In this document: positions 13,231-62,204 of the stretch, piece after piece
Numbering within the stretch: position 1 is the stretch's first letter
How the letters are laid out: each line of letters opens with the position of its first letter
Source: a virus
Taxonomy: Duplodnaviria > Caudoviricetes
DNA length: 64,000 nucleotides
Direction: 5' to 3' (one strand)
IMG/VR virus record: IMGVR_UViG_3300050343_000089
Span: 1,679 to 65,678 of that record
The notes under the pieces: model-generated
Seen by the model: the letters and a program-made list of their open reading frames with translations, nothing else
Told to the model about the DNA's origin: nothing
Databases searched by the model: none
Program-made: the position numbers and the translations under genes

Positions 13231-15767
13231 CTCAGGTAGAAGATAGCTATTGCTAGTACAAACAATAGCTGATGACTGCTATTTGGGCAGTTTATGTTTC
13301 AGGGATATCAGGCAACACCGCTACAGTAAGCAAGGCTAAAGCTGATGATGCTTCTAAAATGCCTGCATTTGGTCTAGCAATAGAAGATGCTAATGCTAAT
13401 AACAATTTACAAATAGTTACACTTGGTAACTTAACAAATATAGATACGTCTAATTTTTCAGAAGGGCAAATTTTATATGTATCTACAACCGCAGGTGAAT
13501 ATACAACCACAATTCCAAGTGGAGAGTCATCACAAATACAAAACATAGGTAAGGTATTAAGAAGTCATGCTGTTAATGGCTCAATCAGAGTAGGTGGTGC
13601 TGGTAGAAGTAACGCTACTCCTAACCTAGATAATGGTAAAATATTTATAGGTAATGGTTCTAATCAATCAACTACTGCAACTTTAGATACTTCTATTGTT
13701 GTTGAGAATACTAACCTTTACTATACCCAATCAAGATTTGATTCTGCTTTTACAGCCAAATCAACATCAGACCTTTTAGAAGGCACAAATTTATACTATA
13801 CAACAGCAAGAGCAAATACAGATTTTGATACAAGACTTGCAACCAAAGATACTGGAAATCTAGCAGAAGGTTCTAATCTTTACTATACAGATGCTAGGTC
13901 TTATACAGCTTTTGACACTAGATTAGCCACAAAAGATACAGATGACCTTTCAGAAGGTACTAATCTTTATTACACTCAAACAAGATTTGATTCTGCTTTT
14001 AGTAATAAGACAACTGCTGATTTAACTGAAAACACAAATTTATACTATACAGATACAAGGGCAAATTCAGCTATAGATGCTAGAGTAACTAAAGCATTTG
14101 TTGATGCTCTTAATGTTCAAGCAGCAAGCGTAGATGCCAATTCAGTAACACTTGGAACAGACACTGTTGGTAATTACATACAAACTATTACAGGAACTGC
14201 TAACAAGATCACTGTATCAGGAAGTGGTAGTGAATCAGCAGACGTAACATTATCATTACCTGATGATGTACAAATAGCTGATAGCTTAACAGTAGCAGGT
14301 AATTTGACTGTTAATGGTACTCTAACCTCATTAGACACAACGAATTTAGATATAGAAGATAACCTATTCCAGCTTAATGCTGGCCTTACAGGAAGTCCTG
14401 TTAATGACTCAGGTATGCTTATTAATCGTGGCAATCAAGACAATGGCATCATTATGTGGGATGAGTCAGTTGATAAATTTACAATGGGTCTTACTACAGC
14501 AGATGGCAGTGCTACAGGAAACATAACACTTAACTCACTAGGAACTTTAGTGGTTAATGTTGAGGGTAACTTAACAGGTAATGTTACTGGAACTGTCTCT
14601 AGCCTATCTAATCATGATACTGATGATTTATCAGAAGGCAGTAACCTTTATTATACTCAAGCAAGATTTGATTCAGCCTTTACTGCTAAGTCTACAAGTG
14701 ATTTATCAGAGGGTACTAATCTTTATTATACTGATGCTAGATTTGATACAAGACTTGCAACAAAAGATACTGGCGATTTATCTGAAGGCTCTAACCTTTA
14801 TTACACTGATGCTAGAGTGGATGCTCGTATAGCAGCTTCTAATTTATCCTCTTATACAACAGATATATTTACAGCTACTTCAGGGCAAACTGCATTTACA
14901 CTTTCTGCAAGTATTAGCAATGAAAATAATTTAATGGTATTTGTTGATGGTGTTTTTCAAGCACAAAATACTTATTCAACTTCAGGAACAACACTAACTT
15001 TTGCAACTGGCATAGTTTTAAATAGAGTTGTTACTGTATATCACATAGAAGATGTATCAATAGGAACACCATCAGACAATACTGTAACTACAGCTAAGAT
15101 AGTTGATGATGCTGTTACCTCAGCTAAGTTAGATACTAATTTAGCTGTTGCAGGTACATTAGATGTAGCAGGTGCGGTTGATGTTGGGAACTTAACAGTA
15201 AATAGTACACAGGGTACAGATGGACAAGTTTTAACTTCCACTGGTAGTGGTGTAGCTTGGGAAGATGCTTCAGGCGGCGGCGGCGGCGGTGGCGGTAGTG
15301 GTGTTCTATCAGGTGGTACTTCTATTTATTTACATAATAATTGGAGTAATCAAAACATTGGTAGAAACTCAGTAGTAAAACTAAATTATGACACAGTAGT
15401 TTTTGGAAATTCAGGAACACCTTTCAGCACAACCAATAATAACTACACAGCTCCATCAGCAGGTAAATATTTATTTTTAGGTCAAGTTAATAGTGCTAAT
15501 TTTGTTACAGGTGCTAATGCTCAACAAGTTTTATATGTGTACATTTATAAAAATGGTTCATCATTACAATATGACGAAGTGTATGAGAAATCTGTATCAG
15601 CAGACACAATTAGATATAAATCAATGTTTAACTATGTAGTTGATTTGGCTCAAAATGATGTAATTGACTTTAGGGCAAGGCTTAGTAATTTTGGCAGTTC
15701 AACAACTTTAGATATTGCCAGAGGTGAACAAAAAACATTCATGTACATAGTAAAAATAGAATCATAA
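13206..15767 (+). CDS. Long tail fibre with DLSEGTNLYYT repeats and C-terminal C1q-like domain; 5' part garbled or missing
   Basis: Start MAQHDYNIA at 13206 matches 46876; ORF 13272-15767; YTAPSAGKYLF...IYKNGS...LAQNDVIDF C1q-like pattern. Confidence 0.75.
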
Positions 15768-25138: not shown

Positions 25139-25230
25139 ATAAAGTGTGTAAACTGTGTAACTGTGTAAGATACATTATATTAGTGTGTAGAGTGTGTAGT
25201 AGTCCATAGGACTACACACTTACACATTAT
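25131..25230. repeat. TGTGTA short repeats plus inverted repeat, candidate replication origin
   Basis: Six TGTGTA direct copies, then gtagtcc-ata-ggactac hairpin and TACACA inverted copies; conserved at 59013-59112. Confidence 0.5.
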
Positions 25231-25750: not shown

Positions 25751-26000
25751 TTGGCATGGTGGAAAAGGCTCTTCGCGTAGAAAAGAAGATAAAAAGAAAA
25801 TAGATGCAAATTGGGATTTGATATTTAACAAAAAGGAGAAAACTATGAATTGTTGGTATTGTGGAACTGGACTTGTATGGGGTGGAGATCACGACATAGC
25901 AGATGAGAATGAAGAATATGATATGGTTACGAACCTATCTTGTCCTGACTGTAAGGCTTATGTTGAGGTTTATATGCCTAAAGGAGATGCAAATGACTGA
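25743..26000 (+). CDS. Small protein with GKGS..RR/NWD.IF peptide and C-terminal CxxC...CxxC zinc ribbon (internal start at 25845)
   Basis: CWYC...CPDC; internal AAGGAG RBS before MNCWYC. Confidence 0.6.
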   Translation: MSSWHGGKGSSRRKEDKKKIDANWDLIFNKKEKTMNCWYCGTGLVWGGDHDIADENEEYDMVTNLSCPDCKAYVEVYMPKGDAND

Positions 26001-26211
26001 TTTAGTAAATAAACCCCCTCATTACAATAAAGGCAAATTTGAATGTATAGACTACATAAAGCAACAGTTAGGTGCAAATTTCCCTGCATATCTTGAAGGT
26101 AACGCTATAAAGTATCTACATAGGCACAAATATAAAGACTCTAACATTCAAGACTTAGAGAAAAGTATTTGGTATATTAATAAATTAAAAGAACATTATG
26201 AGAACCTATAA
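25993..26211 (+). CDS. DUF3310 family protein
   Basis: VNKPPHY...ECID...GNAIKY..R...QDLEKSIWYI. Confidence 0.85.
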   Translation: MTDLVNKPPHYNKGKFECIDYIKQQLGANFPAYLEGNAIKYLHRHKYKDSNIQDLEKSIWYINKLKEHYENL

Positions 26212-26381
26212 TGAGCAATAAACCGCAAATTGATGTTTCGCAATTAAAAAGGCAAATCGATAAAGGCAAATCACTAAACGAGGTGGTCATGTCTCTTGGT
26301 AAAAGCAAATCGACTATTTTAAAAGTTGCTAACGAGAATGGTTTAAAGTTTGATAAAAAGTCTCATTGGGCAAATTTATGA
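26211..26381 (+). CDS. Small helix-turn-helix-like protein (56 aa)
   Basis: KGKSLNEVVMSLGKSKSTILKVA; conserved at 60108-60278. Confidence 0.6.
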   Translation: MSNKPQIDVSQLKRQIDKGKSLNEVVMSLGKSKSTILKVANENGLKFDKKSHWANL

Positions 26382-26692
26382 ATATATCTTTAGATTATGA
26401 TGATACATATTCTTTAGACCCTAAAACTTGGGATAAAATAATTGATATACTACAAAAGGCAAATCACAATGTTTTTTGTGTAACAAAGAGATATGAATCT
26501 ATAGCAGATGATATAAAAGAATCTTTAGACATACCTATAGTTTTTGTACCTAAAGGCAAATCTAAGTCTGCTGAAGTAAGGGACAGAGGTTTAAAGATAG
26601 ATGTTTGGATTGATGACAAGCCTTTATCAATAACTGGTAGAAATGTAAGTCAAGGCAAATTTCATAGAAAACATTTTTTTGGGCAAATTTAA
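26378..26692 (+). CDS. Small HAD-superfamily phosphatase-like protein (copy A only)
   Basis: LDYDDT motif I, VTKR, VWIDD motif IV. Confidence 0.75.
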   Translation: MNISLDYDDTYSLDPKTWDKIIDILQKANHNVFCVTKRYESIADDIKESLDIPIVFVPKGKSKSAEVRDRGLKIDVWIDDKPLSITGRNVSQGKFHRKHFFGQI

Positions 26693-26722
26693 CATTGAGG
26701 CAAATTTAGGTTTAAGGCAAAT

Positions 26723-27379
26723 ATGGATATACAAGTAAAAACTGATCTCAAACAACTGCAAAAAAAGCTAGATATTCTTCGTGACAAAACATTCAACAAA
26801 GTTATGAGCGAAGGAATAAACTTTACAGCAGAGAGAGTTGTCAATGCACAAAGGCAAATGTTGGTAAAAAAACTACATAGACCAAAACCATTTTCAGTTA
26901 AATCTATAATAATGTCACAATTTGCTAAGCCTAGTAAAACACGATTAAAAGCAACTGTAAGGGTTAAAGATAAGTCCGCGTCTTATTTGTATTACATTTA
27001 TACAGGAGATATTGAACCTGCTAGAAGAGAGGCTTATGCTTCACCAACAAACGAAGGCAGAACAAAAGCAAACCAATATGGAAATATTGTTACCAAAAAA
27101 GGACTTATAAAAAAAATAGATGCAACAGACAAAAGCAACAGAAAAGGCTCACGTTTTGTTGGTGTACCTAAAGGTAAAGGCTCTAAAGTTTATGGTGTAT
27201 GGGAGAGACAGGGTAAGAAGGGTAGAGAAGGCTTAAACCTTCTTGTTGCCTATACTCCCTTTATTAGGCATAGAAAGTTTATTGATTGGTTTAAGTTGAG
27301 TCATAAGGTAGTGAAGAATAATCTTTATAAAGAGATCAATAAGCAAATGATTAAAAGGGTTAAGAGGGTAATGAGATAA
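26723..27379 (+). CDS. Basic tail-completion-like protein (gpZ/HK97 gp10-like), displaced from the tail module
   Basis: Very basic; INFTAERV, HRPKPF, GVWER pattern; divergent homologue at 60337-61023. Confidence 0.5.
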   Translation: MDIQVKTDLKQLQKKLDILRDKTFNKVMSEGINFTAERVVNAQRQMLVKKLHRPKPFSVKSIIMSQFAKPSKTRLKATVRVKDKSASYLYYIYTGDIEPARREAYASPTNEGRTKANQYGNIVTKKGLIKKIDATDKSNRKGSRFVGVPKGKGSKVYGVWERQGKKGREGLNLLVAYTPFIRHRKFIDWFKLSHKVVKNNLYKEINKQMIKRVKRVMR

Positions 27380-27425
27380 AGGCAAATTTACCTTAGAGGC
27401 AAATTTACCTTTACTGCAAATTTAA

Positions 27426-27653
27426 TTAATTACTATACAACAAACAAGATTGTATAAATAATGAATCCGCCTCATCATAGTTTTTAAAATATGCAATATC
27501 AGAATAAATACCGCTTTTTCTTTTCGGCTCATATTTATCACCTTCATATTTAAGGATATCAACATAATATTTTTTGCCTTTTTGTTTTAAAAGAACATAA
27601 GGTTTTTTAGTTTTAAAATGTGTTACCCTGCTTTGCAATAATACTTTTTTCAT
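27426..27653 (-). CDS. Early mini-gene (MKKVLLQSRV...), last cassette, copy A only
   Basis: Starts at an AAGGAGCAAGACTAATG junction. Confidence 0.65.
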   Translation of the reverse strand: MKKVLLQSRVTHFKTKKPYVLLKQKGKKYYVDILKYEGDKYEPKRKSGIYSDIAYFKNYDEADSLFIQSCLLYSN

Positions 27654-27871
27654 TAGTCTTGCTCCTTGCAATCAATACAAATAAATTCTTCACAATCTGA
27701 ATTCCAAACATACTGTAAACAACTATCACAACAAGTATGCTCAGGTTGACTTGCATTAAATTCTTGTTCAAATTCTTCATCATTCAAAGAATTATCTATA
27801 TTTATAAATGGGTGATTATTATTAGAATGTAATGTTCTTATTTGTTTAAATGTAAATTTTTCTATATTCAT
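27653..27871 (-). CDS. Early mini-gene, Cys-rich, ends KEQD
   Basis: Bounded on both sides by the junction motif. Confidence 0.7.
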   Translation of the reverse strand: MNIEKFTFKQIRTLHSNNNHPFINIDNSLNDEEFEQEFNASQPEHTCCDSCLQYVWNSDCEEFICIDCKEQD

Positions 27872-28059
27872 TAGTCTTGCTCCTTCTTATATGCACACAC
27901 AACAAAGTTATAACCCTCTGCCTCTGTATCTAAATCTAACAAATCAGTAAGCGTATCCAATACATTTACTTTATGTGATTCAGCATAATCAACACCAAAC
28001 CACACACCGTCAGGAACTATAGTCCACCCATTCTTTTTAAGTTCTTGTTTAGTTATCAT
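27871..28059 (-). CDS. Early mini-gene MITKQELKKNGW..., ends KEQD
   Basis: AAGGAG RBS; same protein at 61556-61744. Confidence 0.75.
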   Translation of the reverse strand: MITKQELKKNGWTIVPDGVWFGVDYAESHKVNVLDTLTDLLDLDTEAEGYNFVVCAYKKEQD

Positions 28060-28095
28060 GTTATTTAACTCCTTAATTTTATTTAACATACACCT

Positions 28096-28124
28096 ATGAT
28101 ATATAAATATATATTTATATGCAA
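28096..28124 (-). promoter_or_regulatory. Leftward sigma70-type promoter TTGCAT-N17-TATCAT with the 20-bp palindrome ATATAAATATATATTTATAT
   Basis: Read directly; palindrome at 28101-28120. Confidence 0.7.
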
Positions 28125-28131
28125 TAGTTAA

Positions 28132-28330
28132 ATGCAAATTTATATTTAAGGCAAATTTAAGATCAAGGCAAATACTGTTTTGATGCAAATTTAGTATCAA
28201 GGCAAATACTGTTTTGATGCAAATTTAGTATCAAGGCAAATTTAGTATCAAGGCAAATTTAGTATCAAGGCAAATTTATTTTTCATAAAAGGCAAATTTA
28301 TTTTTCATAAAAAAAGGCAAATTTATTTTT
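28132..28330 (+). repeat. Tandem array of (AG)GCAAAT units (11 cores; first nine at 17-bp period)
   Basis: AAGGCAAATTTAGTATC units followed by longer A/T-tract units. Confidence 0.95.
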
Positions 28331-28517
28331 GACAAAAAACATCAAAATTTTTTTTGGACAAAAAAAACAAAGACCAACAACAAAAACACCACAAGACATT
28401 CTAAGCCTCTACATTACAATATAAATATATATAGGTAGTAATGCATTACTTTAATATAAAAACACCGCATAAAGGCTTAGAGGCTCTCTTATATAAAGAT
28501 TTATTTATTAAGGGCAT

Positions 28518-28547
28518 AAAAAAAGGCGGTAATAATACCGCCCTTTA
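28518..28547 (-). terminator. Intrinsic terminator of the distal leftward operon
   Basis: ggcggta-ataa-taccgcc stem with A7 on its left (U7 in the leftward transcript); same at 62391-62420. Confidence 0.8.
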
Positions 28548-28564
28548 TTGGTTAGGTTTAGTTA

Positions 28565-28799
28565 TTAGTCTTCTTCTTTATGCTCCCAATATGTCCAATA
28601 ATAGGCTTCAGAATGTCCATTCATGCTTATAATCTTCTTTAGCTTCTCTTTAATCCATCTTTTCCTAATATTTGCTCTACACATTTAACAGAGCAAACAG
28701 ATTCAGAATCGCCAACAATAAACACGCCTGTTTGTTGGTTAGCTTGTCAATTGTTTTATTACAAGATTCACAAGCTACATTCCATGTTTCAAAACTCAT
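28565..28799 (-). CDS. Early mini-gene MSFETWNVACESC..., frameshifted in copy A
   Basis: Homologous to the intact ORF 62438-62671. Confidence 0.6.
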
Positions 28800-28962
28800 T
28801 CTTGTACCTCTCTCATGTTGTCGTAGTCTCTCACTATCTCTATATCAACATGAAACAAAGCACAACACTCTTGATTATCACAGCCCCATGTTTCAACTTC
28901 ACAGCCTATATAATCAAAACATATTCAAGAACACCCTTTTTGCATTTTTTACATCTTTGCAT
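28796..28962 (-). CDS. Early zinc-finger mini-gene MQRCKKCKKG... (one frameshift), copy A only
   Basis: AGGGGTAAATAATG junction; CxxC...CxxxxC after a one-base correction. Confidence 0.5.
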
Positions 28963-29209
28963 TATTTACCCCTATAAATTGTTTAGCTAAATCAGACTCA
29001 CAACCCACATAAAAGGGTATAGATTGGATTCTTACCTTTGTATAACCTTTTGATTCACATAATAAAGCTATTCTCTCTGCAACTGCTTTGCTTTTAATAG
29101 TTTCGCCTAAGTGGTGAGTCTGTAACAGGCTCTCTTGTAAATATTTGGGTTAATGCCCTATCTTCTAGGCTGTTACGCCCCAATTTATATATTCAGTATA
29201 TATCATTCA

Positions 29210-29350
29210 TTATTTACCCCTTATTAATTTTAATTTATGCCCTTGATTAGTTAGGCGGTTAAATTTGTCTTGCATGGTTACAAGACATGAACCCCTAAAG
29301 GCTACAAAGCCTTTAAGTGATCCTTTGTTTATTATGATTTTATATTTCAT
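29210..29350 (-). CDS. Early mini-gene MKYKIIINKGSLKGF...IRGK
   Basis: Homologue at 62671-62811; TAATG coupling. Confidence 0.65.
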   Translation of the reverse strand: MKYKIIINKGSLKGFVAFRGSCLVTMQDKFNRLTNQGHKLKLIRGK

Positions 29351-29685
29351 TACGCCACCTCTTGCTCTTGCATATAATCAAAAACGATTTCTTCGCCTAT
29401 GATATATGTATACATGTTGACTATCTTTTCGGGGTCGCTAAAGTCTGTGTAGACTTCGCCAAAGTTGTCTATTTCATATTCTTTTATGAAGTTGATAATA
29501 TTAAAGGCTTCATCTCCTAGCCATTGTTTAGCTTGATAAGTTCCTATGATGTAATAATCATTGTTAAAAGCGTCATGATGCACCTCTTGATTATCATTGT
29601 TTATTAAATAATCTTTATCATACTCTAAACAATCTTTTAAAAAGTCCTCTAAATGTTCTCTTATTTCTTGTTTTTTGTAGTCCAT
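29350..29685 (-). CDS. Highly acidic early protein, Ocr-like DNA-mimic candidate (copy A only)
   Basis: 111 aa, 27 D/E versus 8 K/R by my count; helical-looking; position near the genome end. Confidence 0.5.
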   Translation of the reverse strand: MDYKKQEIREHLEDFLKDCLEYDKDYLINNDNQEVHHDAFNNDYYIIGTYQAKQWLGDEAFNIINFIKEYEIDNFGEVYTDFSDPEKIVNMYTYIIGEEIVFDYMQEQEVA

Positions 29686-29687
29686 TG

Positions 29688-29837
29688 TTACGCCCCTATT
29701 AATATATTAACTAATGACTTGATGACCACTAGACCAACAAGCAACACACAACCAAAAGCTAAAGAATAATTAATTGCTTTAGTTCTTGCATTATCTACCG
29801 CGTTAATTCTAAACCTAATATTATTTTTATTATTCAT
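29688..29837 (-). CDS. 49-aa membrane peptide, first gene of the distal early operon in copy A
   Basis: AAGGAG RBS; LAFGCVLLVGLVVIKSLVNILIGA hydrophobic C-terminus. Confidence 0.6.
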   Translation of the reverse strand: MNNKNNIRFRINAVDNARTKAINYSLAFGCVLLVGLVVIKSLVNILIGA

Positions 29838-29871
29838 GTTTATATTCTCCTTATAATGTTAAACATAACCT

Positions 29872-29901
29872 ATTATATATAAATATATATTTATATGTCA
29901 A
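29872..29901 (-). promoter_or_regulatory. Consensus sigma70 promoter TTGACA-N18-TATAAT with the 20-bp palindrome
   Basis: Read directly on the minus strand; palindrome at 29877-29896. Confidence 0.8.
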
Positions 29902-30054
29902 TAATTAATTTAATAAATATTTATTTCTTTTTTAATACCTTTATAAGTTTCATGAATAATACATTTAGTATTATTTTCTTGTCATTCCCTTGATTTTTTC
30001 GCGTTGTTTCTTCTTGTCCTCTGAATCCCTTTGTTTATAGGCTTCTGAAACGCT

Positions 30055-30096
30055 AGGTTCTTCTGACCCAGTGGGTACGCAGGTTGCGTGATCGCA
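30055..30096 (+). other. Putative cos site (cosQ/cosN-like)
   Basis: AGGTTCT...GTACG-CAGGTTGCGTGAT-CGCA resembles lambda GGGTCCT...TTACG-GGGCGGCGACCT-CGCG; GC-rich patch upstream of the Nu1-like gene; recurs at 63964-63996. Confidence 0.55.
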
Positions 30097-30216
30097 TTAT
30101 TTTTGTAGAGACAGAGCTGTAACATCAGCCGTATTTATAATATAAAAGTCTTTTTGTAATTGAGCTTTGAATGAAGTATATTTATACTTATGAGTATTAA
30201 GAAACTACTATAAAAC

Positions 30217-30741
30217 TTGGCCACTAGAAAAGAACTAGCAGAGCATCTTGACCTGTCTCCTCAATCTATTAGCGATCTAATTGGAAAGGGTATATTTACT
30301 ATCAGCTCAGGAAGATCGCCTGTTAATATAGATGTGTGCAGGGTTCAATACATAAACTATTTAAGAAAAGCTGCTAGATATACTAAAAAAGATGGTACAG
30401 GTGACATAGCAGAAGAGAAAACCAAACTTACTGCTGCTCAGGCTAGAAAGGCTGAACTTGAAGTAGAAATTATGGAAGGAAAGTTAGTGCCTATACAAGA
30501 AGTTGAGGAGTTTTTGGTTGAAAGGTTTTCAAACGCTAGAGCCAAATGGCTTGGCGTTCCCTCAAAGATTGCACATAAAGTAATTACAGTTGATACTTTT
30601 GCTGAAGCGGAACAAGAAATAAAAGAAGGAATATACGAAGGATTAAACGAACTGGCTAATGATGGAATACCTGAAAAATATAGAACGAGTGGTAGAGAGT
30701 ACGAATCAAGTTTGGACTCCCCCACCCAATCTAAAGATTAG
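30217..30741 (+). CDS. Terminase small subunit (Nu1-like)
   Basis: N-terminal wHTH (TRKELAEHLDLSPQSISDL), coiled coil AQARKAELE...GKLV. Confidence 0.85.
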   Translation: MATRKELAEHLDLSPQSISDLIGKGIFTISSGRSPVNIDVCRVQYINYLRKAARYTKKDGTGDIAEEKTKLTAAQARKAELEVEIMEGKLVPIQEVEEFLVERFSNARAKWLGVPSKIAHKVITVDTFAEAEQEIKEGIYEGLNELANDGIPEKYRTSGREYESSLDSPTQSKD

Positions 30742-46875: not shown

Positions 46876-49800
46876 ATGGCACAACACGATTACAACATAG
46901 CAAACCAATCAGGTGCAGACTTTAGGGCAGATTTAAACAATGCTCTTTTAGCTATTGCAACTGTTAATAGCGGTTCAACAGAACCATCAACTACATTTGC
47001 TCATCAATTATGGGTAGATACATCTAGCAGTGTATTAAAGATCAGAAATGCTGCTGATAATGCTTGGATTACTACAGGTGTTAGTATTACTGCATCTAAT
47101 ACATTTACAGGCGATTTAACAGGTAATGTTACTGGTAACTTAACAGGTAATGTTACAGGTAATGTTACTGGAGACTTAACAGGTAATGCAGATTCTGCTG
47201 ATATATTAACTACAGCTAGAACCATATCTTTATCAGGTGATGTAGTAGGTTCAGTATCTTTTGATGGTAGTACTAATGTTGATATAGATACAGTAGTGCA
47301 AATCAATTCAATAACATTAGGAACTGATACAACTGGTGATTATGTTGAATCTATGTCAGGTGGTACTGGCGTAACAGTAACAGGTGGAACTGGAGAAGGT
47401 TCTACTCCTAGTATTGCTATAGGACAAGCTGTAGCTACAACTGATGATGTTACATTTAATACTGTTACTGCAACTGATGAATTTATTGGAGACATTGATG
47501 GGTCTGTTAGATTTACAGCAAAAGCAGATGAAGCACTTTCTAAGGGAGATATTATTTATGTATCAGGAGTATCAGGAAACACTCCAACAGTAGGCAAAGC
47601 AAAAGCTGATGATGCTTCTAAAATGCCTGCATTTGGTATAGCTGCTGAAGATGCTAATGCTAATACTAATTTGCAAATAGTTACACTGGGTAACTTAATT
47701 AATGTTGATACTTCAAATGAATCAGTTGGTGAAATACTTTATGTATCTACAACAGCAGGTGAATATTCCACAACAGCTCCAACTGGAGAATCATCACAAA
47801 TACAAAACATAGGTAAGGTGTTAAGAAGTCATGCTGTTAATGGTTCTATTAAAGTAGGTGGTGCTGGAAGAAGTAACGCTACTCCTAACTTAGATAATGG
47901 CAAGATATTTATAGGTAATGGTTCTAATCAATCAACTACTGCAACTTTAGATACTTCTATTGTTGTTGAAAATACTAACCTTTACTATACAACTGCTAGA
48001 GCAAATACAGATTTTGATTCAAGACTAGCTACTAAAGATACTGGAGACTTAACTGAAGGTAGCAATTTATATTACACAACAGCTAGGGTTAATACAGATT
48101 TTGATACTAGGTTAGCTACTAAAGATACAGGTGACTTATCTGAAGGCTCTAATCTTTACTATACAGATGCAAGAGTAAATTCTGCATTTGATACTAGACT
48201 AGCCACTAAAGATACAGATGATGTATCAGAAGGAACTACTAACCTTTATTATACAACATCAAGAACAAATACAGATTTTGATACTAGACTTGGAACTAAA
48301 TCTACAAGTGATTTAGCAGAAGGTACTAATTTATATTACACATCAGCTAGATTTGATTCTGCTTTTACATCTAAAGATACAGATGATTTAAGTGAAGGAA
48401 CTACTAATCTATATTACACAACTACTAGATTTGATTCTGCTTTTGGTAATAAGACAACTGCTGATTTAACTGAAAACACAAATTTATACTATACAGATAC
48501 AAGAGCAAATTCAGCTATAGATGCAAGAGTAACTAAAGCATTTGTTGATGCTCTTAGGAATACAAGCAACAAGTGTTGCTGCCAATTCAGTAACACTTGG
48601 AATGACACTACAGGTAATTATATTCAAACTATTACAGGAACTGCTAATAAGATCACTGTATCAGGAAGTGGTAGTGAATCAGCAGACGTAACATTATCAT
48701 TACCTGATGATGTGCAAATTGCTGATAGCTTAACAGTAGCAGGTAATTTAACTGTTAATGGCACTCTAACGTCTTTAGACACAACCAATTTAGATATAGA
48801 AGATAACCTATTCCAACTTAATGCAGGTCTTACAGGAAGTCCTGTTAATGACTCAGGTATGCTTATTAATAGAGGTACTTCTGATAATAGTATCTTTATG
48901 TGGGATGAATCAGTTGATAAATTTACAATGGGTCTTACTACAGCAGATGGCAGTGCTACAGGAAACATAACACTTAACTCACTAGGAACTTTAGTGGTTA
49001 ATGTTGAGGGTAACTTAACAGGTAATGTTACTGGAACTGTCTCTAGCCTATCCAACCATGATACTGATGATCTAACTGAAGGCAGTAACCTTTACTATAC
49101 TCAAGCAAGATTTGATTCAGCCTTTACTGCTAAGTCTACAAGTGATTTATCAGAGGGTACTAATCTTTATTATACTGATGCTAGATTTGATACAAGACTA
49201 GCAAGTAAAGATACTGATGATGTATCTGAAGGCACTAGCAATCTTTACTATACTTCTACAAGATTTGATTCTGCATTTGGTGGCAAGTCTACAAGTGATC
49301 TATCAGAAGGTACTAATTTATATTATACAAGTGCAAGAGCTAACACTGATTTTGATACAAGACTTGCAACAAAAGACACTGGCAATTTATCAGAAGGACC
49401 TTTATTACACTGATTCTAGAAGATGCTAGAATCTACAAACAGGAGCTAACTTAGACTTATTACACTGATGCTTTATTACAGAGCTAGAGTACAAGCTGTT
49501 TCTATTAACAATGTTGTAGAAGATACAACTCCACAATTAGGTGGGAATTTAGATTTAAATTCAAGCGATATAACAGGTACTGGTGATATTAATATTACAG
49601 GTACTATTACTTCTTCAGGAAACATCACAGGTACATTAGCTACAGCAGCTCAACCTAATATTACAAGTCTTGGAACTCTGACAGCTCTTACTGGTGGTAC
49701 AGGAGATTTAAACTGGGATAGTGGAACTTTATTTGTAGATTCTTCTGCAAATGTTGTTGGCATAGGAGAAACTTCGCCTCAAGCTGGTTTAGAGTTAGCT

Positions 49801-56428: not shown

Positions 56429-57043
56429 ATGGATATATTAGGAGGAATGAGCAATTCCACTGAAGGACAGCAAGTTTATCTTGCTTTTAAAACTGCCGAT
56501 CAACAATTTTTTGTTAATGGCAAAACACCAATTGATTTTAAATACTTGCAGTTAGACCCTGCAACATTTAGAAGTGGTTGGGGTAGATATAATGGAGAGT
56601 ACCAATATGTATGGGATGAGAAGTTTGGTAATGCAAACGACAAACCAGGAGATGATTGGAAGAGGGCGTTTAGCTGTTGCGTTATGCCACATGGACATGA
56701 CCATGCATTAATATGGAGTAGATACACTTTTGCTGAATCTAGTGCTTTTAATAAGATACTAAGTAGCTTTTGGAATCAAATGGATGCAAATAGTGATTCA
56801 CTACCTGTTGTTGAGTATAAAGGCTCAAAAGAAATACAGGTTGGAGTAGGTAGATCGTCAGAGCTAACTTTTGAGTTTTCTAAGTTTGCACCTAGATTTG
56901 CTAACTTTGAAATACCTGCTCACTATGGCAAAGAAGATGAGGAAGTAGAAGATACTTTCAAGAGTCCTAATGATGGTCTTGCAGAAAAAGTGCAAGAGAT
57001 GGTCGATAAGAATGAATTATCAGATGACGATATTCCTTTTTAA
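56429..57043 (+). CDS. SSB-like protein
   Basis: Homologue of 22547-23161. Confidence 0.65.
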   Translation: MDILGGMSNSTEGQQVYLAFKTADQQFFVNGKTPIDFKYLQLDPATFRSGWGRYNGEYQYVWDEKFGNANDKPGDDWKRAFSCCVMPHGHDHALIWSRYTFAESSAFNKILSSFWNQMDANSDSLPVVEYKGSKEIQVGVGRSSELTFEFSKFAPRFANFEIPAHYGKEDEEVEDTFKSPNDGLAEKVQEMVDKNELSDDDIPF

Positions 57044-59020: not shown

Positions 59021-59137
59021 ATAAAGTGTGTAAAGTGTGTAACTGTGTAAGATACATTATATTAGTGTGTAGAGTGTGTAGTAGTCCATAGGACTACACA
59101 CTTACACATTATTATGTATAGCACAAAGGAATAGTAT

Positions 59138-60108: not shown

Positions 60109-60336
60109 TGAGCAATAAACCGCAAATTGATGTTTCGCAATTAAAAAGGCAAATCGATAAAGGCAAATCACTAAACGAGGTAGTTATGTCTCTTGGTAAA
60201 AGCAAATCGACTATTTTAAAAGTTGCTAACGAGAATGGTTTAAAGTTTGATAAAAAGTCTCCTTGGGCAAATTTGTAATTAAGGCAAATTTAGTACAGGC
60301 AAATTTAGGTTTAAGGCAAATTTATTACAGGCAAAT

Positions 60337-61023
60337 ATGGAAATAGTATTAAAGACAAATATAAAAGAATTGCAAAAGAAAATGCAAATAGTTCAAAAGA
60401 AAGTATTTATGAAAAGTTTATCTGAAGGCATAAACAAAACTGCTGAAATGGTAGCAAAGGCAAATAACGATAAATTAAAACAAAAACTAAACAAACCCAT
60501 GAAAACAAGTGTTACTGCTGTTGCTGTCACCCATTATGCCAAACCAAATAAATACCAACTATCAGCACAAATAATGGTCAAGGATTATGCCTCGAAATTC
60601 CTGTATTACATTTATACAGGAGAAGATGAACATGCTCGAAGAGAGAAGTATCCCTCTCCAACTAGGGACGGAAAACATTTAGCTGGGGTTACTGGTAATA
60701 TTCAAAAACTAAAAAGTAGTGAAAAGGCTACTGGCACAGGAACAGGTTTATTAGCTAGGATAGATAAAACAGAAAGCAATGATAGGGCAAAATCACGTTT
60801 TATGGGCAAACCTAAAGGCAAAGGCTCAGGGGTTTATGGTATATGGCAAAGAACAGGTAGAAAGGGTAGAGGTGGACTTAAATTGCTTGTAGCCTTTACT
60901 CCATTTATTAAACATAAAAAATTGATCGACTTTTTCAAACTATCTACCAAAGTTGTAAAGAATAATTTGTATAAAGAAGTAAACAAACAAGCCATCAAAA
61001 GAATTAACAAGGCAATGAGATAA
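60337..61023 (+). CDS. Basic tail-completion-like protein, divergent allele
   Basis: Shares LYYIYTG, PKGKGS.VYG.W, LLVA.TPFI.H with 26723-27379. Confidence 0.5.
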   Translation: MEIVLKTNIKELQKKMQIVQKKVFMKSLSEGINKTAEMVAKANNDKLKQKLNKPMKTSVTAVAVTHYAKPNKYQLSAQIMVKDYASKFLYYIYTGEDEHARREKYPSPTRDGKHLAGVTGNIQKLKSSEKATGTGTGLLARIDKTESNDRAKSRFMGKPKGKGSGVYGIWQRTGRKGRGGLKLLVAFTPFIKHKKLIDFFKLSTKVVKNNLYKEVNKQAIKRINKAMR

Positions 61024-61083
61024 AGGCAAATTTACCATTAGAGGCAAATTTACCTTTACTGCAAATTTATAATACTTTTTCCA

Positions 61084-61257
61084 TTAGTCTTGCTCCTTAT
61101 AGTTTTTATAATAAATTTTAATTTCGTTAGGTCTTGAATCAGAACATTCATCCTCTTCTGAATTACAAACCTCACATTTTAGGGTTATAGATTTTTTATG
61201 AATGTAATTATTATCACAATCACAATCCCAATATCTAGGGTCGGTTTTAACTATCAT
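61084..61257 (-). CDS. Early Cys-rich mini-gene MIVKTDPRYWDCDC..., ends KEQD (copy B only)
   Basis: Bounded by junction motifs. Confidence 0.7.
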   Translation of the reverse strand: MIVKTDPRYWDCDCDNNYIHKKSITLKCEVCNSEEDECSDSRPNEIKIYYKNYKEQD

Positions 61258-61402
61258 TGTCTTGCTCCTTGTTAGTCCACCACAAGGAAACAGTATAGTT
61301 TTCTTGTTTACAGTTGTTGCAATAGCAGTCCATTTCATTACTCTTGTCCTTGATAATCTCTATATCATCAGACGTACATTCATCACATACATAATTATCC
61401 AT
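61247..61402 (-). CDS. Early zinc-finger mini-gene MDNYVCDEC...CNNC...KEQDNDS (copy B only)
   Basis: GAGGAGG RBS; missing from the ORF track. Confidence 0.65.
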   Translation of the reverse strand: MDNYVCDECTSDDIEIIKDKSNEMDCYCNNCKQENYTVSLWWTNKEQDNDS

Positions 61403-61556
61403 TAGATACCTCCTCAGTTTCTTCTAAATGATGTATTAAGGCATATAGTCCTGCCTTGATACCTGTATGTTCTGATTGAGTATGACTATCGTTTACCCAT
61501 TCATCATCTGCAATAATATCTTCTGCAATATTTTTAATTCGATCTATTGTTATCAT
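61395..61556 (-). CDS. Early acidic mini-gene MITIDRIKNIAED... (copy B only)
   Basis: Starts at the junction motif. Confidence 0.65.
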   Translation of the reverse strand: MITIDRIKNIAEDIIADDEWVNDSHTQSEHTGIKAGLYALIHHLEETEEVSNG

Positions 61557-61744
61557 TAGTCTTGCTCCTTCTTGTATGCACACACAACAAAGTTATAACC
61601 CTCTGCCTCTGTATCTAAATCTAACAAATCAGTAAGCGTATCCAATACATTTACTTTATGTGATTCAGCATAATCAACACCAAACCACACACCGTCAGGA
61701 ACTATAGTCCACCCATTCTTTTTAAGTTCTTGTTTAGTTATCAT
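61556..61744 (-). CDS. Early mini-gene MITKQELKKNGW...KEQD
   Basis: Same protein as 27871-28059. Confidence 0.75.
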   Translation of the reverse strand: MITKQELKKNGWTIVPDGVWFGVDYAESHKVNVLDTLTDLLDLDTEAEGYNFVVCAYKKEQD

Positions 61745-61780
61745 GTTATTTAACTCCTTAATTTTATTTAACATACACCT

Positions 61781-61809
61781 ATGATATATAAATATATATT
61801 TATATGCAA
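61781..61809 (-). promoter_or_regulatory. Leftward promoter with the 20-bp palindrome
   Basis: Identical to 28096-28124; palindrome at 61786-61805. Confidence 0.7.
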
Positions 61810-61829
61810 TAGTTAAATGCAAAATATTT

Positions 61830-62204
61830 AAGGCAAATAGTATTAAGGCAAATTTCAAGTATCAAGGCAAATTTAGTATCAAGGCAAATTTAAGATCAAG
61901 GCAAATTTAGTATCAAGGCAAATTTAGTATCAAGGCAAATTTAGTATCAAGGCAAATTTAGTATCAAGGCAAATTTATTTTTTATAAAAAAAGGCAAATT
62001 TATTTTTCATAAAAAAAGGCAAATTTATTTTTTATTTAGGCAAATTTATTTTTCATAAAAAAAGGCAAATTTCATTTTTTATAAAAAAAGGCAAATTTAT
62101 TTTTCATAAAAAAAGGCAAATTTATTTTTCATAAAAAAAGGCAAATTTATTTTTTATAAAAAAAGGCAAATTTATTTTTCATAAAAAAAGGCAAATTTAT
62201 TTTT
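61830..62204 (+). repeat. Expanded AGGCAAAT tandem array (18 cores; 17-bp then about 25-bp units)
   Basis: AAGGCAAATTTAGTATC repeated, then AAAAAAAGGCAAATTTATTTTTCAT repeated. Confidence 0.95.

Follow-up and report, generated by a model that had tools for sequence, protein, structure and literature searches.

A 17-nucleotide Shine–Dalgarno and stop/start connector at exchange points of small-gene cassettes in marine siphoviruses

The gain, loss and reordering of small ORFan genes in phages is a long-standing question, and few concrete sequence elements have been tied to it apart from the promoter-early stem-loops (PeSLs) of T4-type phages. In integron arrays, promoterless open reading frames (ORFs) stand in one orientation behind one upstream promoter, and the number, order and position of the cassettes vary. 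The modular theory of lambdoid phages proposes short conserved boundary or linker sequences at module borders, where crossovers would yield viable mosaics. De Paepe et al. reportedly described relaxed homologous recombination by phage recombinases in 2014. The present work concerns a 17-nt connector, J (AAGGAGCAAGACTAATG), which joins genes of two small-gene arrays, A and B, in 64,000 nt of viral DNA (Duplodnaviria; Caudoviricetes), positions 1,679 to 65,678 of the IMG/VR record IMGVR_UViG_3300050343_000089, hereafter the window. J consists of a Shine–Dalgarno (SD) sequence followed by an overlapping stop and start codon, and it coincides with points at which gene cassettes have been exchanged. 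A connector of this kind acting as an exchange joint is not described in the literature searched, where PeSLs and the start-associated sequences (SAS) of mycobacteriophages are the only kin found.

PeSLs were reported by Arbiol et al. 2010 (PMC2839356), and reportedly also treated by Comeau et al. in 2014; the passages of the 2010 paper on these elements form the basis of the comparison. They are short conserved sequences that, like J, flank small ORFan genes in hyperplastic regions, and a gene with a copy on each side in one phage is matched by a single copy in a close relative. A further likeness is that the inserted gene brings its own expression signal and that no site-specific recombinase is involved (PMC2839356). 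The elements themselves are very different. A PeSL has ~100 conserved bp, is intergenic, carries a sigma-70 promoter and a terminator stem-loop and is transcriptional (PMC2839356), whereas J has 17 nt, lies partly inside the upstream ORF, has neither a stem-loop nor conserved flanks and is predicted to couple translation within one operon. Mini-circles of PeSLs were physically shown (PMC2839356), whereas J arrays are known here from assembled contigs alone. The phage lineage carrying J, a ~33-kb siphovirus, is unrelated to the PeSL phages.

SAS were described in Cluster K mycobacteriophages by Pope et al. 2011 (PMC3203893), again compared here through the passages of the paper that deal with them. 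Like J, SAS is an asymmetric motif with the SD core AGGAG, placed a few bases before the ATG of unrelated non-structural genes; it sometimes takes in the upstream stop codon, has one orientation and is lineage-specific (PMC3203893). SAS differs in being a 13-bp sequence (GGGATAGGAGCCC) of which J shares the AGGAG core only, and in having 11–19 copies over half a genome instead of one contiguous array. About half of the SAS copies are accompanied by 17-bp inverted repeats (ESAS), which is a further difference. Its proposed role is in translation initiation, and these passages report no cassette exchange at SAS (PMC3203893).

An earlier reading of the window, here called the first-pass annotation, described the arrays as integron-like, which holds as an analogy only. 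No IntI was found in the scanned ORFs, and attI and attC hairpin sites are absent; the joint, a translational 17-mer, is not palindromic, and exchange presumably proceeds by general or short-homology recombination. The linkers of lambdoid phages differ in being heterogeneous intergenic stretches between functional modules, not one SD/stop/start unit repeated at small genes. Expression signals that double as ORFan exchange joints (PeSLs) and a conserved SD-containing start motif (SAS) are thus already known. The literature searched gave no instance of an invariant SD/stop/start connector at the sites of cassette exchange, accompanied by nested series of arrays and several parallel connector types.

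J is present in the window in four exact copies, all on the minus strand, where 0.02 are expected; none of 100 shuffled sequences reached four. It comprises the SD sequence AAGGAG, an 8-nt spacer and the stop/start overlap TAATG. At each copy, AAG GAG CAA GAC TAA closes the upstream ORF and gives its product the tail KEQD, while the ATG overlapping TAA opens the next ORF. An SD sequence within the end of the upstream ORF, combined with a stop codon overlapping the next start, is the layout expected of a translational-coupling junction. No further GGAG-N6-TAATG site occurs in the 64 kb. J is non-palindromic, has no conserved or flanking inverted repeats and never lies inside an inverted-repeat arm; the only inverted-repeat pair flanking a copy (I5, around J2(B)) is AT-rich and has no counterpart in A.

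The array locus is a hypervariable leftward operon that holds small accessory ORFs and is convergent with a gene of 218/228 aa. Array A runs gene 1, J1, A2, J2, A3, while array B runs gene 1, J1, B2, a different connector (J3, GAGGAGGTATCTAATG), B3, a T-deleted J (Jv, AAGGAGCAAGACAATG), B4, J2 and an 18-nt stump of A3. Among the six distinct array proteins, five are acidic (pI 4.05–4.84), three contain 5–6 Cys and A3 is basic. The first 84–116 nt of the arrays are 84–100% identical in relatives, whichever first gene comes next. A putative promoter of array A, TTGCAT-17-TATCAT, was read by eye from this conserved leader region; the promoter scan did not list the site. These data bear out most of the anatomy given in the first-pass annotation, namely the four J copies, the one-base variant, the common KEQD ends, the promoter and first gene common to both arrays, and the two downstream cassettes in A and three in B (B having the A3 remnant in addition), mostly acidic or Cys-rich.

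The two arrays do not belong to one genome. Self-comparison divides the window into two tandem variant units, offset by 33,500 nt and 80–95% identical, which from their sequence are taken as two variant genomes, ~33.5 kb each, of one siphovirus. Arrays A and B are thus orthologous, the same locus in two variants, and J1 of A corresponds to J1 of B and J2 of A to J2 of B, giving two orthologous pairs rather than four independent occurrences. The source record is a viral contig of 65,678 bp, and its double unit is probably, and most simply, the result of an assembly that ran through two co-occurring strains. If the record does consist of two joined strain copies, the completeness estimate of 100% at 65.7 kb is misleading.

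Comparison of the two variants locates the exchange points. The leader and first gene are 99.6% identical over 271 nt, homology then ends at the last base of J1 and resumes at the first base of J2, with unrelated content between these points, one cassette in A and three in B. Identity is lost again 13 nt past J2, as A 27667-27638 corresponds to B 61098-61069 and the alignment then continues from A 27424 at B 61069. The changes from A to B therefore comprise one replacement bounded by J on both sides and one deletion that is not. From J through A3 and its downstream flank (280 nt), the contig L096 is 96.8% identical to A, although the cassette is the second gene there and the third in the window.

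Close relatives hold differing sets and orders of cassettes drawn from a common pool of small ORFs. One cassette is first in L096 and third in L075, and gene 1 with J1 precedes a different cassette in each of WA, WB and L048. Two J copies in one array against one J with the same flanks in another were found in eight clean J-to-J indel relations, of which about six are independent. In one alignment (A1), the same flanking genes are separated by 0 (L037, L063), 2 (L069) or 5 (L389) cassettes; J or a J-like site forms each junction apart from one inside L389, and the zero-cassette state is a single J. An ORFan with two repeats in one genome and a single repeat in a close relative is therefore seen at J, and a pattern of this kind is the one that underlies the PeSL model as set out in the parts of PMC2839356 devoted to it. 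As in integrons, the cassettes are promoterless, share one orientation and vary in number and order behind a common putative promoter. The unit of Jv and B4 recurs in L187 behind a different upstream ORF than in the window. In a comparison of nine arrays, J or J-like sites account for about half of the internal ends of homology. The search of viral contigs and the cassette catalogue that the first-pass annotation proposed thus gave variable content and order and no fixed gene content, and the exchange points coincide with the junction at J1 and J2, in the independent indels and in the nested series.

The same boundaries are visible in natural populations. Twenty runs from 14 studies, labelled as seawater, marine or viral metagenomes, contain the array stretch in part or whole, and the source sample may be among these runs. 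Assembled contigs of four runs from four studies were placed on 26300-28700, a type of data in which rare joints, circles and uncovered parts are not visible. These contigs end or diverge at 28055-28059 (the leader ATG), 27885-27890 (J1) and 27638-27667 (J2). In runs X1, X3 and X6, loose contig ends carry another cassette straight behind the leader ATG, and in X2 they show the B4 end fused to J2. Contigs with the A arrangement itself cross J1 in X2 and X6 and J2 in X3. Bridging and branching contigs from independent runs weigh against an assembly artefact.

A wider scan of viral contigs for J listed at least 119 loci. A scan with J plus one base gave 59 loci, 43 of them among the 119 listed, from which a total of ~160 was estimated. 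Two versions of J with a permuted middle hexamer served as controls and gave 41 and 21 loci, the first differing from J at just 2 positions and hence not being fully independent of it. The listed loci contain 132 J instances, of which 111 have an in-frame ORF of 40 aa or more upstream and an ORF of 30 aa or more downstream. These junctions join 87 distinct family pairs, with 12 families found on both sides of J, and conservation beyond the 17 nt is nil across 101 unique contexts. At least two J-like sites within 2 kb occur in 46/119 loci, compared with 6/41 and 1/21 control loci, and at least one protein in common with the window occurs in 59/119, compared with 13/41 and 2/21. The hexamer CAAGAC fills 13 of 47 non-seed AAGGAG-N6-TAATG sites within the listed loci, which is not attributable to chance. 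GGA and ATG are invariant in the J-like variants, while positions 0, 1, 6, 9 and 11 vary. Differences within cassette families number 1268/857/2832 at codon positions 1/2/3, with position 3 leading in 29 of 31 families, as expected of coding genes. A search of 596 Gb of cellular genomes gave 107 single matches to J in unrelated taxa, near the ~70 estimated at uniform composition, and no host or prophage clue. A second J-like site accompanies just two of the 107, and a relation to the cassettes was seen in a single short binned contig, L249.

J is not the only connector of this form. Related arrays contain further recurrent SD and stop/start connectors, including AGAGGAGGTATCTAATG, which gives the tail EVSN, AAAGGAGTCCGACAATG, which gives ESDN, and GAGGAGGTGAATGATGAGTAA, which gives EVNDE and a next gene starting MMS. 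These were seen in L069, L037, L089 and L194-L199 as well as at 61400-61415 of the window. The J3 type recurs about five times in L069 (four copies within 2 mismatches of the consensus) and three times in L037, and some arrays have blocks of two connector types. The same protein families end in EQD, EEVSDV or ESDNG depending on the connector, with similarity stopping at the GGAG core; homologues of gene 1 end in EEVSDV in L069 and EESDNG in L089. As the tail follows the connector type, it belongs to the connector and not to the protein core, and as families work with different connectors, a single J-specific binding factor is unlikely. No clean indel relation was found at the other connector types, which offer just 16–26 sites each. 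Non-J junction pairs lie within 2 mismatches of each other in 4.5% of cases within arrays, compared with 0.28% between arrays. Gene chains of unrelated control phages gave 1.0% (5/509) and 3.8% (3/79), so control chains also repeat their junctions and a 'house style' alone is not special.

The reading favoured here, with a probability of roughly 60%, is that J is an SD and stop/start-overlap connector which doubles as a joint of short homology through which cassettes are exchanged, in the manner of PeSLs in T4-type phages. Each ORF would supply, in its final four codons and stop, the SD and spacer for the next, and any ORF behind J could be expressed from the single upstream promoter by translational coupling. 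The same 15–17 nt stand at many gene boundaries in co-occurring related phages, where crossovers or template switches between J copies may delete, insert or replace whole ORFs, each exchange leaving one intact J and the neighbours in frame. J would then act as a short direct repeat for general short-homology recombination or replication slippage without a site-specific recombinase, and the candidate routes are a RecE-like exonuclease pathway or such slippage. The logic would be that of modular shuffling by PeSLs, transferred to translation. Early expression of the array and circular intermediates are presumed. In line with the first-pass annotation, which proposed exchange without a dedicated integrase, scans of ORFs (35 against PHROGs, 31 against Pfam and 7 against NCBIfam, with some small ORFs outside the scans) detected no family of integrases or recombinases.

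Several observations speak against giving J such a role or limit its extent. The loss of A3 in B lies off J, 13 nt past J2, replacement of the first gene takes place at the leader ATG, which is not a J, and the other half or so of the internal breakpoints in the nine arrays are at other gene boundaries. Relatives were also retrieved by their helicase, independently of J (80 loci, of which 73 were entered and 53 had at least 1.8 kb downstream). A J-like site on the array strand is present in just 12 of the 53, with six carrying two or more. Close relatives without J still vary their arrays from the same cassette pool, among them L327, in which J has decayed. J is therefore not required for shuffling and is one route of exchange among others, which leaves the first-pass proposal of a junction providing microhomology for gain, loss and reordering supported by the exchange points at J1 and J2 and by the indels, but not as a general requirement. 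Family adjacency is broken in 32–49% of J pairs compared with 56–60% of non-J pairs, a crude measure with non-independent pairs, and a statistical advantage of J over other junctions in exchange was not demonstrated. The enrichment of J in viral contigs is modest, about 4–8 fold (~160 loci against 41 and 21). A length of 17 nt is short for efficient homologous recombination. The recombination intermediates are hypothetical and of a kind that assembled contigs cannot show.

It is possible, if rather unlikely, that J is kept only for translation or its control, as an extended ribosome-binding site (RBS), a re-initiation signal, the operator of an RNA-binding factor of phage or host, or an SAS-like element, and that exchange at J reflects no more than the survival of those recombinants that join at gene boundaries. 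The placing of AAGGAG 8 nt before an ATG overlapping the stop would suit this, as would the invariance of GGA and ATG, the shuffling in relatives without J and the fact that J junctions are broken no more often than others. SAS also provide a precedent for a conserved asymmetric SD motif before unrelated non-structural genes, as far as the passages on them go (PMC3203893). However, neither chance nor convergence explains the identical non-SD bases between unrelated genes (13/47), and the clean nested series leave exactly one J. The use of different connectors by the same families and the arrays of two types make a single specific factor unlikely, and J has decayed in L327 while the array was retained. 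A purely peptide-level explanation, in which the KEQD C-terminus is a functional tag (e.g., for stability or targeting) and DNA identity is secondary, is barely plausible. Many unrelated small proteins do end in K/R/E-E-Q-D, but synonymous codon choice does not vary (AAG, GAG, CAA, GAC), the tail within a single family may be EQD, EEVSDV, ESDNG or lacking altogether, and the T-deleted variant turns the tail into KEQDNDS in two contigs.

The precision of the products and the sharp limits of the conserved unit would also be expected if unannotated ORFs encoded a dedicated enzyme, as yet unrecognised, that acts on J (for instance a site-specific recombinase, homing-type nuclease or template-switching activity), and several ORFs of the replication and early region have no family match. 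This is nonetheless quite improbable, as the ORFs scanned against PHROGs, Pfam and NCBIfam yielded no match to families of tyrosine or serine recombinases, transposases or HNH proteins, J is non-palindromic without flanking inverted repeats, and 60/119 listed J loci are in contigs without a detected protein in common with this phage. Artificial shuffling by assemblers joining strains at a shared 17-mer is very improbable. The record does resemble two strain variants head to tail, and its 65.7 kb compares with 28–40 kb in two subgroups of its phage group according to parts of PMC12629253. Against this, 17 nt is below usual assembly word sizes, the same arrangements occur in different metagenomes (L048/L101/L018, L075/L011 and L037/L063), and the A arrangement is bridged at J1 and at J2 by independent Logan contigs. 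The dual role of J as connector and exchange joint remains the preferred reading; the parts of the arrays are collected in Table 1.

Table 1. Coordinates in the window of the parts of arrays A and B and of the repeats beside them.
Feature	Positions	Strand	Remarks
Upstream region and leader of array A	28057..28140	-	ends in leader RBS/start AAGGAGTTAAATAACATG (28057-28074)
Gene 1 of A	27871..28059	-	62 aa, acidic, tail KEQD
J1(A), AAGGAGCAAGACTAATG	27869..27885	-	A/B homology stops here; bridged by Logan contigs in X2 and X6, others diverge
Cassette A2	27653..27871	-	72 aa, 6 Cys; J on both sides; absent from B
J2(A)	27651..27667	-	homology with B and L096 begins at its first base; bridged by X3 contig
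Cassette A3	27426..27653	-	75 aa, basic; last gene of A
Two AAATTTGCC repeats	27381..27406	-	directly downstream of array A
AAATTTGCC iteron field upstream of A	28150..28324	-	6 exact copies, periods 17 and 25 nt
Gene 1 of B	61556..61744	-	protein identical to that of gene 1 of A
J1(B)	61554..61570	-	orthologous to J1(A)
Cassette B2	61395..61556	-	53 aa, acidic; relatives in at least 8 other contigs behind different junctions
B2/B3 junction J3, GAGGAGGTATCTAATG	61400..61415	-	second recurrent connector type
Cassette B3	61247..61402	-	51 aa, 5 Cys; reads through T-deleted J, tail KEQDNDS
Jv, AAGGAGCAAGACAATG	61255..61270	-	J without the T of TAATG; same Jv and B4 behind another ORF in L187
Cassette B4	61084..61257	-	57 aa, 5 Cys, tail KEQD
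J2(B)	61082..61098	-	orthologous to J2(A)
A3 remnant in B	61067..61084	-	5 codons and stop; deletion begins 13 nt past J2
AAATTTGCC iteron field upstream of B	61847..62198	-	17 exact copies

The phage carrying these arrays is probably a lytic marine siphovirus of the CRP-822-type group. Each unit of ~33.5 kb has a GC content of ~35% and a similar gene order, and its major capsid protein is 61.7% identical to that of Roseobacter phage CRP-811. Scans against PHROGs, Pfam and NCBIfam identified TerS, TerL, portal, major capsid protein, tape measure protein and tail fibres in each unit, together with a primase-helicase, a PDDEXK_15 protein that is RusA-like by PHROG and a RecE-like PD-(D/E)XK exonuclease (DUF3799 / exonuclease VIII C-terminal domain). 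An annealing partner for this exonuclease was not identified in searches of Pfam, NCBIfam and PDB sequences, and a candidate annealing or single-stranded DNA-binding protein, the 204-aa ORF at 56429-57043, has no match in them. Rfam families and tRNAs numbered zero. CRP-811, the closest cultured relative, contains no J (its best site has 3 mismatches) and has a GC content of 51–54%; blastn of 26000-30500 against cultured phages gave no match. CRP-811 is a member of the recently described CRP-822-type group, and the parts of the paper on that group state that integrase is absent from almost all members and that two subgroups with stated size ranges span ~28–40 kb (PMC12629253). They also predict that the low-GC subgroup (~35%) infects SAR86 (PMC12629253).

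The surroundings of the arrays show other signs of variation. The 218/228-aa gene beside the array (26723-27379 and 60337-61023; PHROG 'minor tail protein') is 65–75% identical between A and B, in contrast to 94% for the 8 kb upstream and 99.6% for gene 1 of the array. Such divergence between conserved neighbours points to a local mosaic with recent exchange of adjoining segments. One further contig, listed as both L187 and L307, has a helicase whose best segment is 100% identical to unit B, a 218-aa protein 99% identical to that of unit A, and another array, and may be a further natural recombinant. In the large tail-fibre-like genes, repeats of 75–87 nt (13700-14830 and 47970-49420) differ in copy number and sequence between the units. 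Directly after the helicase there is a 9-nt tandem repeat of ~3.3 copies, with the consensus TAAACTGTG at 25140-25168 and TAAAGTGTG at 59022-59050.

A second repeat, AAATTTGCC, also accumulates around the arrays. The window contains 37 copies of it, where 1.1 are expected, and every one is on the minus strand (26032-28324 and 60266-62198). With one exception (13465), the copies cluster with periods of 15–25 nt in the gaps around a 108-aa gene, the 218/228-aa gene and the array, and six lie upstream of the array in A compared with 17 in B. The 108-aa gene (26378-26698) is bounded by these repeats, and its presence or absence was seen in each of the four runs. The AAATTTGCC repeats could be origin iterons, binding sites of a regulator or, for larger modules, a second set of exchange joints akin to PeSLs.

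The function of the cassettes offers few clues. Those in the window match no Pfam or PHROG family, save for one weak PHROG match of unknown function for B4, and Atlas look-ups for gene 1 and A3 gave no usable lead. Of 66 cassette-chain family representatives, 61 have no Pfam match (E <= 0.001). The five that match comprise a C-5 DNA methylase, an exonuclease VII small-subunit-like protein and a DUF4241 protein, with a zinc ribbon and a SWIRM domain as weak matches under the curated cut-off. The swapping of anti-defence or host-takeover genes envisaged in the first-pass annotation is thus unsupported, and such a role of the cassettes is a guess.

More tentatively, and with well under even odds, the supergroup may trade pooled, promoterless and coupling-ready small ORFs through 15–21-nt connector dialects that act as compatibility groups. 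This would make it an integrase-free counterpart of the integron, possibly with excised one-connector circles as the form of transfer, holding a fast-changing repertoire for host takeover or counter-defence. J is a short, searchable marker of exact exchange points in natural populations of abundant uncultured marine phages. It would also offer a simple means of cataloguing the accessory genes of these phages. If J proves to be only translational, it would be a second, independent case of the unexplained phenomenon represented by SAS.

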